NCBI GenBank assembly: GCA_965238175.1
Contig: CBDEGZ010000003.1
Coordinates: 2,627,885-2,691,884, forward strand
Reading direction: 5' to 3'
Source of the DNA: Gammaproteobacteria bacterium
GTDB taxonomy: Bacteria > Pseudomonadota > Gammaproteobacteria > CAJXQU01
DNA length: 64,000 nt
Part shown: positions 42,871 through 46,074 of the stretch, piece after piece
How the letters are laid out: every line of letters begins with the position of its first letter
How positions within the stretch are numbered: position 1 is the stretch's first letter
Position numbers and translations under genes: made by a program
Notes under the pieces: model-generated
Told to the model about the DNA's origin: nothing
Database searches by the model: none
What the model saw: only the letters and a program-made list of their open reading frames with translations

Positions 42871-44346
42871 TTACTGTGAAATTAGCCTACATGTCGGCTC
42901 CCGTTGCATTACTTCCATCGATACCGAGACTTGTTCTTCAATAAACAACACAGACCTTCCACATTCCAAAATCGTCTTAACTTTCTCTATCGCCAGTCTC
43001 ACAGGAAACCCAAAACGTGCGCCACGATGATTCCGTTTCATTCTGGTAAGATCAAGCTTTTTAGCAACAACCTCATCGGAATGATGATAAAACTCATAAA
43101 ACTTCCCCACCCGAAAGAACAACACGTCCCCAGGAAAACGCCAGCGAAAATATCCATACTGTTGACTGACTCGCTGAAAGTTCTTTGGTACAGCATATTT
43201 TCTGATCAACTTCCAGCTAACACTATCAAACTCAAAATACTGCTGCAAATAATCAAATCTGTTCCAAATCGATTGCCACAGGTTCCAGCAACTGGCGAGT
43301 TTAAAATGTCCCAGATACGACGATAGCATTGCTGATAATTTATCCAGCAAAGTAATATCAAAGCGATAGCGCGTGACACCGCCCCTTTCTTCAACCAGCA
43401 AGGATTCATAGTCACACAATTGTTCCTTAAGGTGATTCACCACCCGCCGCCTCACCAGCATATAATCCCGTCGCACGATATAACCGAGAAAATCCAGCCC
43501 ATTCGAAACTGAGGCTAGCGGCTGTCGTGAGTTGAGTTGTAACTGGCGATGTTCATTCAGATTAACTTCTATCTGACTTTTCCATTCCAGTAGTTGCTCT
43601 CGCTCCTTTGCCAGCAGCACAAAATCATCACAATAACGTAAGTAATACCGGCACTTCAATTGATGCTTAATCAGATGATCCATACCGGTCAGATAGACAT
43701 TGGCAAAAAACTGGCTATTCAAATTACCGATGGGCAATCCTTTATTGTCACCACAACCAAACAGGGTTTTATGTGCGGGTATTCGTCCAGTTAAATCACG
43801 TCCCCGAAAAATATGGTTCTGTGTACAATCATGATAGACCAGTATTTTCGTCAACCATAATGCCGTGTCATCGTTAAGCTTTGCCGACAATAAGCCATAA
43901 AGAATATCCTTATCAATGGTCATGAAATAATTACGGATATCCAGTTGCAAATAATACGCTGGTTGTATGCCGTTGCAGGTCACTTGTCGAATAAACCGCT
44001 GTAGACGTTTCACACCACGATGCACTCCTTTGCCTTTTCGACAGGCATAGGAATCATGGATAAATATTGGTTCCCAGATTTTCTCCAGATAATCTACCAG
44101 TAAATGATGCACCACACGGTCACGAAAATCGGCAGCAAAGATTTCGCGTAACTTAGGTCGAGTTGAAAAAAAGCAGACAGAACGGGTCGGCTGGTAAGTA
44201 CGATTGATCAATGACTCTCGCAGGCTCAACAGTTGTTTCTCCTGCTCAGCTTCAAAACGCAATGCATTAATTGTGTTGCGCTTATTTCTGCGACAGGCGT
44301 AATACTGCCGATAGAGATTTTCAAGCGACAGGTCGAGAGTGATCAT
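42871..44346 (-). CDS. Diversity-generating retroelement reverse transcriptase with C-terminal MutS domain-I-like extension
   Basis: RT motifs: LDIRNYF (motif A), the DGR-diagnostic LPIGNLNSQ in place of QGxxxSP, and YLRYCDDFVLL (YxDD). Residues from about 395 to the end read QQYGYFRWRFPGDVLFFRVGKFYEFYHHSDEVVAKKLDLTRMKRNHRGARFGFPVRLAIEKVKTILECGRSVLFIEEQ. This aligns with E. coli MutS [81 protein letters not shown]. Confidence 0.85.
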   Translation of the reverse strand: MITLDLSLENLYRQYYACRRNKRNTINALRFEAEQEKQLLSLRESLINRTYQPTRSVCFFSTRPKLREIFAADFRDRVVHHLLVDYLEKIWEPIFIHDSYACRKGKGVHRGVKRLQRFIRQVTCNGIQPAYYLQLDIRNYFMTIDKDILYGLLSAKLNDDTALWLTKILVYHDCTQNHIFRGRDLTGRIPAHKTLFGCGDNKGLPIGNLNSQFFANVYLTGMDHLIKHQLKCRYYLRYCDDFVLLAKEREQLLEWKSQIEVNLNEHRQLQLNSRQPLASVSNGLDFLGYIVRRDYMLVRRRVVNHLKEQLCDYESLLVEERGGVTRYRFDITLLDKLSAMLSSYLGHFKLASCWNLWQSIWNRFDYLQQYFEFDSVSWKLIRKYAVPKNFQRVSQQYGYFRWRFPGDVLFFRVGKFYEFYHHSDEVVAKKLDLTRMKRNHRGARFGFPVRLAIEKVKTILECGRSVLFIEEQVSVSMEVMQREPTCRLISQ

Positions 44347-44479
44347 TCTCCGGGGCGAACGGCAAGGGCAAACAAATTATTAGTCTTATTGTTGTTGTTC
44401 TGGTTGCCGTTATTGAAGTTAAAGTTCAGCGCATTAGAGGAATTCAACTCCACGCCTGACCAGTAGTTATTCGACTGGA
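44347..44479 (-). repeat. DGR template repeat (TR), about 130 bp, abutting the RT start codon
   Basis: Homologous to 45382..45515 at an offset of 1036. The coding-strand reading is an Asn(AAY)-rich pseudo-ORF (SNNYWSGVELNSSNALNFNFNNGNQNNNNKTNNLFALAVRPGE). 14 of 15 mismatches to the VR fall at TR adenines. Confidence 0.85.
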
Positions 44480-44699
44480 CAATTACCTGCCCTCTTTCCG
44501 ATAGTATCCTGAGGATAAACTCACAAAACGGATACCACCCCACCGGCAAGAAATCTTTGTAATAAAGTAGCCTTGCCTGAATTAACATGCCAGAGAAACT
44601 ATTCTCAGGCGGGACAGGCGCACAATGATACACGTTGGTACGCTTACCTGAACTGTCCATACAAACAGGACAAATTAACAGATAATTCTGACTCTCTCA

Positions 44700-45071
44700 T
44701 CAAACTACACCTTTTTCATTTTTTCGTACTCGACTGCTCCTTATCCAGCCCTCGTTCTGTCTGCAAACTGACACCACCTGTTCGATGGCAAATTGAAATG
44801 ATTTAAAACTTTTGAAGGCCTTTGCCTCTTTCGCTATACGCACGAGTATCAATAATTCATCGAGCTGTTCGCGCAAGACCAGAAGATGAGGGCGCTTATC
44901 CCTGGCGGCATTGGCTTTCATAATCAGGGAAACCACTACACGGCTTTTGTTGCGTAGTTCTGTGCCGAGCGTGTATTTGTGATAACGGGAGAAGCCCGAA
45001 ACCACTTTTTCGAAATAAACGGCCACATCCATCGCTTGTTTGTAAATCGGAAGATGTTCGTATCTTGCCAT
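44700..45071 (-). CDS. avd: DGR accessory variability determinant (Avd; four-helix-bundle protein, TIGR02436-like)
   Basis: 123 aa basic protein between the target gene and the TR. Helix pattern HKYTLGTELRNKSRVVVSLIMKA / LREQLDELLILVRIAKEAKAF / FQFAIEQVVSVCRQNEGW is typical of the Avd family. Confidence 0.65.
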   Translation of the reverse strand: MARYEHLPIYKQAMDVAVYFEKVVSGFSRYHKYTLGTELRNKSRVVVSLIMKANAARDKRPHLLVLREQLDELLILVRIAKEAKAFKSFKSFQFAIEQVVSVCRQNEGWIRSSRVRKNEKGVV

Positions 45072-45294
45072 GAGTAAAATTCCTTTTTCTGTAGCGCTTG
45101 TAGGTCGGATTACAACTGCATATATGCCGGAGGTAAGTAGCGCAGGAGCAGTTACCGAGCGCAGCGTAATCCGACAAATAATAAATGCTGGATTATGCTA
45201 TCGCTAATCCAACCTACAAATTCAAAACCGCAGGGGGCGTCCCCTACCCCCCTAAAGGGTCAAATCATACAAATGACCGAATGACCAAATTACG

Positions 45295-46074
45295 TTACCG
45301 CCGTTTCCTTCTAAACCCTGCCAACCCAAACAATGCGGAACCCATCAGCCATACAGCCGCTGGAACTGGGACGGCGGCAACATCGCCGGGGCGAACGGCA
45401 TGGGCAAACAAATTAAAAGTCTTATTGCGGTTGCGCTGGTCGCCGTTAGTGAAGCTAAAGAGCAGCGCATTAGAGGAACCCAACTCCACGCCTGACCAGT
45501 AGTTATGCGACTGGAGGTTGGTGAATTGGCCTACGTTGTTGAGTCCAGCGCCTGTTTGTGCGACACAGCCGGTTGGGGCGCTGTTGTTGGGTGTGCAAAA
45601 GCCCAGGTTGCCCAGCGTTGCGTAGTATAAATGACCCATTTCTGAGACTGGGGTGTTACTACTGTTCTGCCAGCCGATGCCAGTGGCGCCTGTACCAATG
45701 TCGCTGGTGCCGTTGTTGGTGAAGCCGGTCTGGAAGCTTGTACCATTGATGGGACTTAGGCTTGGCAGGCGCCAGTCGTTGAAGCCGAGGTGGTTGGCGC
45801 TGTTCATGCCCGCTATCCACAGGTTGGCGTTGTCCCAGGTCATGCGACCGGTGCTGCCAACAGTGTTGGCGGTGTCGTCAGCTTCATTGGTGCTGAGTGT
45901 CAGGCCAAACTGGTTGGTCAGTGCCAAGTTGGCATTGGAGAGCCAGGTGATGTCCAGTACATCATCATAGAGGGCATCGCCGCCCAATCTTGAGATTAAG
46001 GTGGCGTGGGCGGTGCTGCTTAAGCAAATGAGTAGTGTTATTACGCTGAAAGACTTAATACTGATGAGTTTCAT
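45295..46074 (-). CDS. DGR target protein: secreted DUF1566 (Lcl C-terminal / C-type-lectin-fold) protein with C-terminal PEP-CTERM exosortase sorting signal
   Basis: Signal peptide MKLISIKSFSVITLLICLSSTAHA. DUF1566 hallmarks (DITWLSNANLA..., NDWRLPS, ...AVRPGD). The VR lies at residues about 187-230. The C-terminus is VPVPAAVWLMGSALFGLAGFRRKRR, a PEP-like motif with TM helix and RRKRR. Confidence 0.8.
   Translation of the reverse strand: MKLISIKSFSVITLLICLSSTAHATLISRLGGDALYDDVLDITWLSNANLALTNQFGLTLSTNEADDTANTVGSTGRMTWDNANLWIAGMNSANHLGFNDWRLPSLSPINGTSFQTGFTNNGTSDIGTGATGIGWQNSSNTPVSEMGHLYYATLGNLGFCTPNNSAPTGCVAQTGAGLNNVGQFTNLQSHNYWSGVELGSSNALLFSFTNGDQRNRNKTFNLFAHAVRPGDVAAVPVPAAVWLMGSALFGLAGFRRKRR
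45382..45515 (-). repeat. DGR variable repeat (VR) inside the target gene, with a GC-rich IMH-like 3' end
   Basis: Aligns base-for-base with the TR. Substitutions N->H/G/L/S/T/D/R/R/F and others arise only where the TR coding strand has A. The 3' end GCCGTTCGCCCCGG is GC-rich and carries the single non-adenine difference (position 45401 versus TR 44365). Confidence 0.85.

Follow-up and report, generated by a model that had tools for sequence, protein, structure and literature searches.

Targeted hypermutation of proteins in prokaryotes is known in nature only from diversity-generating retroelements (DGRs), and almost all that we know of their mechanism comes from one phage element. Their engineering for continuous directed evolution is under way. 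Here, we analysed a 64-kb stretch of contig CBDEGZ010000003.1 from an uncultured gammaproteobacterium (called the window here), which almost certainly carries a DGR between the genes fhs and apt. All coordinates are positions in the whole stretch unless another contig is named, and the coding strand of the element is the minus strand.

In the Bordetella phage BPP-1 DGR the parts are arranged as mtd-avd-TR-Sp-brt (cryo-EM structures 8ub7-8ubf), where TR is the template region, brt encodes the reverse transcriptase (RT) and Sp is a non-coding region 3′ of TR. An Avd-binding stem-loop opens Sp. Next come a primer strand, complementary to the 3′ end of TR, the essential G57 and, two nucleotides past it, a strand that pairs just upstream of TR and serves as the cPRT stop; the rest is a short stem-loop, a long single-stranded “thumb ring” and a long stem with interruptions that binds the RT (Handa et al., bioRxiv 10.1101/2023.10.23.563531). 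Avd-binding stem-loops were found 3′ of TR in 207 of 278 Avd-containing DGRs in the same study. A second group of described relatives links DGRs to mismatch repair: three related RTs have “weak” similarity to MutS domain I (MutS_I), and a stand-alone MutS-like (MSL) gene accompanies 16 DGRs (Wu et al. 2018 NAR, PMC5758913). A literature search found no other mention of an RT–MutS_I fusion.

As a DGR, the element in the window is one more member of a large and well-known class. It stands out in three respects: it belongs to an under-described clade of RT–MutS_I fusions with PEP-CTERM lectin targets, it forms an insertion/empty-site pair with a relative, and it has a covariation-backed RNA module on the side of the template opposite to that in the paradigm.

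Anatomy and adenine-specific divergence

An earlier note on this DNA, made from the letters alone, had described the four canonical DGR parts lying co-linearly on the minus strand. We find the target gene, avd, TR and RT each present, intact and properly placed (Table 1), and the boundaries that the note gave for the three open reading frames (ORFs) were right on recheck. An independent repeat search returned a 133-nt direct repeat (offset 1036, 88% identity) that corresponds to TR and the variable region (VR) of the target gene. It is the only such pair in a self-comparison of the 64-kb window, which revealed no additional VRs or remote targets.

Table 1. Features of the retroelement (window coordinates).
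Feature	Position	Strand	Basis or remark
Whole DGR cassette, insertion relative to the closest relative	42658..46329	−	3672 bp; collinearity with L062
Target (variable protein) gene, 259 aa: signal-like N-terminus, Lcl_C/DUF1566 C-type-lectin-like domain, PEP-CTERM-type tail	45295..46074	−	
VR, target codons 187-231	45383..45515	−	Repeat search and mismatch spectrum
VPLPA/PEP-CTERM sorting signal, residues 234-259: VPVPAA, hydrophobic helix, RRKRR	45298..45375	−	TIGR03370
Terminator-like hairpin 3′ of the target gene	45230..45247	−	Consensus scan only
avd accessory gene, 123 aa, pI 10.1	44700..45071	−	Pfam bAvd
Conserved structured RNA module 5′ of TR, Sp-like	44480..44694	−	RNAalifold, pair counts, covariance model
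RNA hairpin P1	44644-44685	−	
RNA long-range helix	44611-44619 with 44485-44494	−	
RNA hairpin P2	44589-44610	−	
RNA hairpin P3	44545-44577	−	
RNA hairpin P4	44500-44539	−	
Invariant hexamer AUCAUU, then invariant G; proposed primer strand	44624..44629	−	Complementary to the junction hexamer, 51/51 loci
TR, 40 adenines, 15 AAY codons	44347..44479	−	Repeat search
Junction hexamer AAUGAU at the TR 3′ boundary, holding the RT start codon (44344-44346); proposed template strand of the priming duplex	44342..44347	−	
DGR reverse transcriptase, 491 aa, fused to MutS domain I	42871..44346	−	RVT_1; IGNLNSQ 43711-43731, YCDD 43624-43635
MutS domain I, RT residues 393-483; Phe416-x-Glu418 at 43093-43101	42898..43170	−	Pfam MutS_I

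Read on the minus strand, TR and VR differ at 16 of 133 positions. Tabulated by TR base, the differences are enriched at adenines: 15 of the 16 fall on an adenine of TR (Fisher p=2.1e-8; binomial p=1.7e-7), and the single remaining one, a T→A change at 44365, is 1 change in 93 non-A positions. The earlier note had listed 14 adenine sites, every one of which we recovered; its tally of 15 mismatches, 14 at adenines, was one short, as an A→C change at 44349 lies inside the repeat and not in its flank, while the adenine specificity that it claimed stands. TR is rich in Asn codons, as had been noted, and AAY codons account for 14 of the 15 adenine changes, each at codon position 1 or 2. TR could give rise to 1.2e24 DNA variants or 5.8e21 protein variants, has no stop codon, and can reach one by mutation in one codon only. 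Both repeats end in a 14-nt GC-rich segment, GCCGTTCGCCCCGG. Across 60 homologues of the target, the AAY-templated VR columns have an entropy of 3.28 bits compared to 1.22 bits elsewhere in VR. Five related loci show the same architecture, with 12/14 to 19/20 of their TR/VR mismatches at adenines.

The RT matches Pfam RVT_1, and the DGR-diagnostic motif IGNLNSQ (residues 206-212), already recognised in the earlier note, and the catalytic YCDD (238-241) are both invariant among 107 homologues (57-85% identity). Its best sequence match in the Protein Data Bank (PDB) is the Bordetella phage DGR RT (bRT; 8ub7, E 3e-32), which is also the best fold match of the predicted structure (pLDDT 89.9; TM 0.83, E 5e-22). 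The Avd-like ORF scores above the Pfam cut-off for bAvd (48.2 bits; gathering threshold (GA) 40).

The significance of the adenine bias, together with the intact and well-placed components, supports the DGR reading, and at the level of sequence the element shows every feature by which a DGR is recognised. The repeat could in principle be an ordinary partial gene duplication that has diverged neutrally beside an unrelated defence or retron-type RT, and NCBIfam does match the RT, weakly and below threshold, to RTs of the group II intron, Drt and retron types. However, the mismatch spectrum (p=2e-8) already refutes a duplication, and the same A-biased architecture in five related loci, the DGR RT as best structural match and the presence of Avd leave it virtually no probability.

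Some observations count against an intact DGR. No conserved hairpin or cruciform was found 3′ of VR in six folded loci (z = -1.1 to +1.6), unlike in BPP-1. The avd product scores 44.3 bits with NCBIfam DivGenRetAVD, under the cut-off of 80, and the Lcl_C score of the target is under the curated Pfam cut-off. The mismatch 44365/45401 affects target residue 225, which is Leu in TR and His in VR and is W or L in 57/60 homologues; it could reflect drift since the last homing event, and could have arisen as a post-homing point mutation or as a non-A error of the RT. With these points weighed, an intact DGR, carried as a horizontally acquired 3.67-kb cassette between fhs and apt of an uncultured gammaproteobacterium, is the best explanation as a whole, with a probability of roughly 0.9.

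Insertion and horizontal acquisition

The closest relative is L062, a contig of an uncultured gammaproteobacterial metagenome-assembled genome (MAG) that has the closest fhs homologue (95% identity) and an identical gene order. Positions 38966-42657 and 46330-53000 are collinear with L062 at 83-84% nucleotide identity. The fhs-apt gap in L062 is 88 nt and represents an empty site, and in the window the 3672 bp of the cassette stand in place of 34 bp. A strong terminator-like inverted repeat (AAAAAAGGCCGGT/ACTGGCCTTTTTT) lies 3′ of fhs at 42627-42659. The empty-site relative has kept it as well, and it delimits the insertion on the left; it is overlapped at 42558-42730 by weak Rfam small-RNA matches that stay below threshold. 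We saw no target-site duplication or terminal repeat at the insertion boundaries, and the cassette has no integrase or recognisable mobility gene.

The closest related cassette, in L001 (RT 86% identical), is at a different site, between obgE/proB and murJ/ribF. The target gene has a GC content of 54-56% in a background of approximately 40%. The empty site in L062, the different locus in L001 and the GC content of the target mark the cassette as horizontally acquired, and it has thus moved as one unit. The earlier description of the element as chromosomally resident thus holds, with the addition that the resident cassette is an acquired 3.67-kb insertion. It documents a clean insertion/empty-site pair for a DGR cassette without a recognisable mobility gene.

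Some other members of the clade adjoin genes for Y1/Y2 transposases (IS200/IS605-type or REP-associated) or a phage-type integrase (L020/L021, 1-787; L022, 55-246; L059, 2648-3826). These neighbours may bear on how such cassettes move; the cassette in the window has no neighbour of this kind.

A viral origin was considered and rejected. Neither peptide patterns nor the RNA motif described below found a relative in IMG/VR, and tblastn matches in phages and plasmids were at most 42% identical and, among the matches listed, covered the polymerase part only, not reaching MutS_I. The element is chromosomal and not phage-borne as in BPP-1, with 0 matches in viral contigs.

A structured RNA module upstream of the template repeat

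The spacer between avd and TR is 215 nt long. In related loci it consists of near-identical blocks split by hairpins of differing sequence. One block, used as a motif, matched 32 metagenome loci and none of 2.9 million viral contigs; a further match, L049, was a false positive and was removed. The RNAalifold consensus of 35 distinct spacer sequences has a 5′ hairpin (P1) and a long-range helix that encloses three further hairpins (P2-P4). The 5′ strand of the long-range helix starts 4 nt after an invariant AUCAUUGUGC, and its 3′ strand ends just 5′ of TR.

The covariation behind this fold is extensive. Compensatory changes, on both sides of the pair, occur in 29 of the 46 consensus pairs, and 95.2% of the cells are paired compared to 35-44% when the partners are slid. 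The covariation score is 0.489 (0.06-0.12 in the controls), and 0/500 shuffles reached the observed values. For the long-range helix we counted 18 fully paired haplotypes, with more in divergent members. A covariance model built without the window gave one match in the 64 kb, full length over the spacer (44480-44694, minus strand; 117.6 bits, E 1.7e-36), where 41 of the 46 consensus pairs are formed and the single-sequence fold has z = -3.43. Rfam has no match in 44480-44694 at E<=1, and none in the rest of the element. The avd-TR spacer is thus a conserved structured RNA.

A further pairing links the module to the start of the RT gene. The spacer hexamer AUCAUU is the reverse complement of AAUGAU, which spans the 3′ boundary of TR and the RT start codon, and wherever a locus contains both ends (51/51), the reverse complement of its spacer hexamer falls exactly on the TR/RT junction. 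Four hexamer variants are compensated on both strands (AUCAUC:GAUGAU, AUCAUG:CAUGAU, AUCACU:AGUGAU and UUCAUC:GAUGAA), and in AUCACU:AGUGAU the compensation turns the RT start codon into GUG. The TR/VR homology begins 1-8 nt past the long-range helix and stops at the hexamer; hence the two duplexes bracket exactly the segment that is copied. A predicted hairpin in alignment columns 56-60/70-75 competes with the hexamer pairing. It is invariant, so covariation is uninformative about it. Translational coupling of the TR frame to the RT (TGA/TAA overlaps ATG at all loci) was also considered and set aside, as the RNA duplex over the same bases is the better explanation.

The module resembles the Bordetella Sp element by element and in the same order: P1, the hexamer with its G, the helix strand, P2, the conserved single strand GGCAUGAnnAUnCAGG and an interrupted P3. 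It differs in having an additional P4 and, above all, in lying 5′ and not 3′ of TR. Because the RT ORF begins right where TR ends, there is no non-coding Sp, and the 150 nt after TR, which code for the RT, fold with only -1.2 kcal/mol and 7 pairs, compared to -58.2 for the upstream module (consensus). By analogy with Sp and from the covariation, the upstream RNA is probably the priming/stop module of the element, a permuted Sp.

In such a scheme, a transcript that covers the spacer and TR would fold into the Sp-like module and be bound by an RT-Avd complex. AUCAUU(G) would pair with AAUGAU at the 3′ end of TR, including the RT start codon, and so position cis-priming. cDNA synthesis would copy TR with random incorporation opposite adenines and would stop on reaching the long-range helix, the end of which is 1-8 nt 5′ of TR. 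The cDNA would then replace VR in the target gene, so that as many as 21 codons for the ligand-binding face of the C-type-lectin-like protein could be re-randomised, and the product would be exported and sorted by a PEP-CTERM/exosortase route.

Two points weigh against these roles. Priming and stop functions are assigned by analogy with one experimentally studied phage DGR, and the start-codon pairing could regulate translation instead. The RNA might then be a cis-regulatory leader that masks the RT start codon through AUCAUU:AAUGAU and controls RT translation, with priming left to some other element. The duplex does cover the start codon and the bases just 5′ of it, and covariation proves pairing, not function. 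However, the order of elements mirrors the Bordetella Sp one by one, cDNA synthesis has to end where the long-range helix does, 1-8 nt before TR, and no alternative structured RNA is present 3′ of TR. A leader function in place of priming thus appears unlikely, although the two roles are not mutually exclusive and both could hold.

Carried furthest, the permuted-Sp reading describes the clade RNA as a circular permutation of the Bordetella DGR RNA with the whole Sp module 5′ of the template. The RT start codon would be part of the priming duplex, RT translation and cDNA priming would compete on one transcript, and the MutS domain of the RT would guard the heteroduplex from mismatch repair. For this combination as a whole we see somewhat less than an even chance. 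As the same RNA elements seem to work in a different topological order, with pairings backed by covariation, the clade offers a natural test of the cis-priming/stop-duplex model.

MutS domain I fused to the reverse transcriptase

The RT carries a C-terminal MutS_I domain (PF01624; 40.6 bits, GA 20.6), which the earlier note had not mentioned, as it had not the PEP-CTERM tail, the structured spacer RNA or the role of the TR 3′ boundary and RT start codon as a duplex strand; its call of a DGR is unaffected. In an alignment with MutS of Taq and E. coli, the domain matches GDFYE, the segment that recognises mismatches. Among the 107 RT homologues, Glu418 is conserved in 107/107 and Phe416 in 101/107, and Gly414, Arg441 and Gly446 are invariant. 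The domain is basic, with a pI of 10.1. The fusion defines a large clade of more than 100 clusters (approximately 490-520 aa, 58-86% identity); a search with the domain itself returned 242 representative clusters, of which the strong ones were mostly fragments of RT fusions.

This DGR shares with the MutS_I and MSL DGRs of Wu et al. 2018, including those of Legionella and Bacteroides, a MutS mismatch-binding domain tied to an Avd-containing DGR, and it also shares their target class (DUF1566/CLec2, category “d”, as in Legionella). Compared to the MutS_I RTs described there, the match is above the Pfam cut-off, Phe-X-Glu is conserved and the clade is large. In contrast to the MSL-type DGRs, no separate MSL gene is present, and in contrast to bRT, which has no extra subdomains, the polymerase itself carries the domain.

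Mutagenic homing passes through a cDNA:VR heteroduplex that is rich in mismatches. We tentatively propose that the fused domain binds these mismatches and shields them from host mismatch repair, because a tethered domain could occupy the mismatches and exclude the host MutS. In Bacteroides, deletion of mutS raises VR mutagenesis and retrohoming 5-10 fold in an all-or-nothing manner (bioRxiv 10.1101/2024.11.15.621889). Against shielding, MutS proved dispensable for the DGR of the Bordetella phage (Wu et al. 2018, PMC5758913). The domain might instead help the polymerase to tolerate or extend mismatched RNA:DNA termini, or target the cDNA to VR, with no shielding involved. Its covalent attachment to the polymerase, rather than existence as a free factor, and its basic pI would suit such a role. 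However, related DGRs have the domain as a stand-alone MSL protein (Wu et al. 2018), which speaks against a polymerase role that is strictly in cis, and we consider this alternative somewhat unlikely. Because the domain is covalently fused to the RT and its mismatch-binding residues are conserved, the clade makes the long-suspected connection of DGRs with mismatch repair accessible to study.

Target protein

The target had been assigned to DUF1566 in the earlier note, and we find the Lcl_C/DUF1566 match; the protein has a C-type-lectin fold of the DGR type, with TvpA, Mtd and TaqVP as the matching DGR variable proteins. The VR codons form the end of the C-type-lectin-like domain, and the hypervariable columns of the 60 target homologues coincide with the AAY positions. 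The tail matches TIGR03370 (VPLPA-CTERM; 29.1 bits, cut-off 25.35), P236 and P238 in it are invariant in the 60 homologues, and targets of related loci have the same PEP-CTERM-type tail.

From the signal-like N-terminus and this tail, a cell-surface location, as the earlier note had suggested, is plausible. Two observations speak against sorting by this route: the tail scores 18.2 with Pfam PEP-CTERM (PF07589), under the GA of 20.7, and no exosortase gene is among the annotated genes of the 64-kb window. The target would be a PEP-CTERM cell protein and not a tail fibre as in BPP-1. Other close counterparts are LdtA of the Legionella pneumophila DGR and the Lcl C-terminal domain (PDB 8q4e); LdtA is a lipoprotein, whereas the predicted anchor here is the VPLPA/PEP-CTERM tail. 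A literature search found no tie between DGRs and PEP-CTERM or exosortase; the clade would extend DGR targets to PEP-CTERM/exosortase-sorted surface proteins of environmental gammaproteobacteria.

The spacer between the target gene and avd contains a segment of approximately 118 nt (45100-45217) that has a hairpin inside and inverted termini of 13-14 nt (GTAGGTYGGATTAS). The segment is missing from the homologous L001 cassette, is the sole copy in the window and looks like a small REP/MITE-like insertion.

Activity of the clade and of the element

Two clade members from separate NCBI assemblies, L020 and L021, have identical RTs (63% identical to the RT in the window) and identical TRs. Their VRs differ at 18 positions, 18/18 of them at TR adenines (p=7e-11), and there are zero substitutions in the approximately 5.4 kb flanking VR. 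These adenine-only differences demonstrate natural activity of the clade. Outside VR, the two contigs differ by just 17 substitutions, which cluster as a local hotspot in approximately 325 nt (5511-5835) of a downstream peptidase-family gene. A second pair with identical RTs from two samples, L014 and L015, is 100% identical over 4.7 kb; it probably represents the same population and is hence uninformative on turnover.

Assembly breaks are expected at a TR/VR repeat or at a heterogeneous VR. All contigs that carry the clade RT P0072 break at TR and so offer no VR for comparison, and the metagenome contigs L010-L013, L016-L019 and L024, which have clade RTs, begin within TR or just 5′ of it.

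Since its parts are intact, the element in the window is likely to be functional at present. Against this stands the fact that its RT, target and Avd proteins were each found on one contig only, so that turnover is seen in a clade member and not in this lineage; an exact look-up of the RT in the contig index returned no entry. A relic, in which homing has ended and TR and VR differ only as a trace of former activity, would fit that lack of a second copy to reveal turnover and the one non-adenine mismatch, at a conserved scaffold residue. It would also fit L001, in which the target ORF (4331-5083) ends inside VR and the TR/VR alignment needs indels; that target is either decaying or affected by indel errors in a long-read MAG, and the indels may be no more than such errors. 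In the window, however, the three ORFs are intact and the RT keeps the catalytic and DGR motifs that do not vary among 107 homologues. A model from the other loci gives the RNA module 117.6 bits, and TR is free of stops, has kept 40 adenines and shows 1 change in 93 non-A positions. We therefore regard a relic as unlikely and favour a working element.

Genomic neighbourhood

The window contains infB-nusA-rimP, a ClC channel gene, fhs, apt, a LysR regulator gene, ppc and serine-cycle-type genes. The only mobile-element gene seen is an IS-type transposase (HTH_29 and rve integrase core) at 16677-17711, approximately 25 kb from the cassette. The absence of flanking phage, integrase or mobile-element genes, as reported earlier, is borne out: the neighbours are housekeeping and C1-metabolism genes. 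At 48770-56853 we find ppc and genes for a 2-hydroxyacid dehydrogenase, two CoA-ligase subunits (malate thiokinase-like), an HpcH-family lyase (malyl-CoA lyase-like) and a class-V aminotransferase, and fhs (40926-42599) is on the other side of the insertion site from this cluster. A serine-cycle/C1-type cluster beside the insertion suggests that the host is a methylotroph-like gammaproteobacterium.

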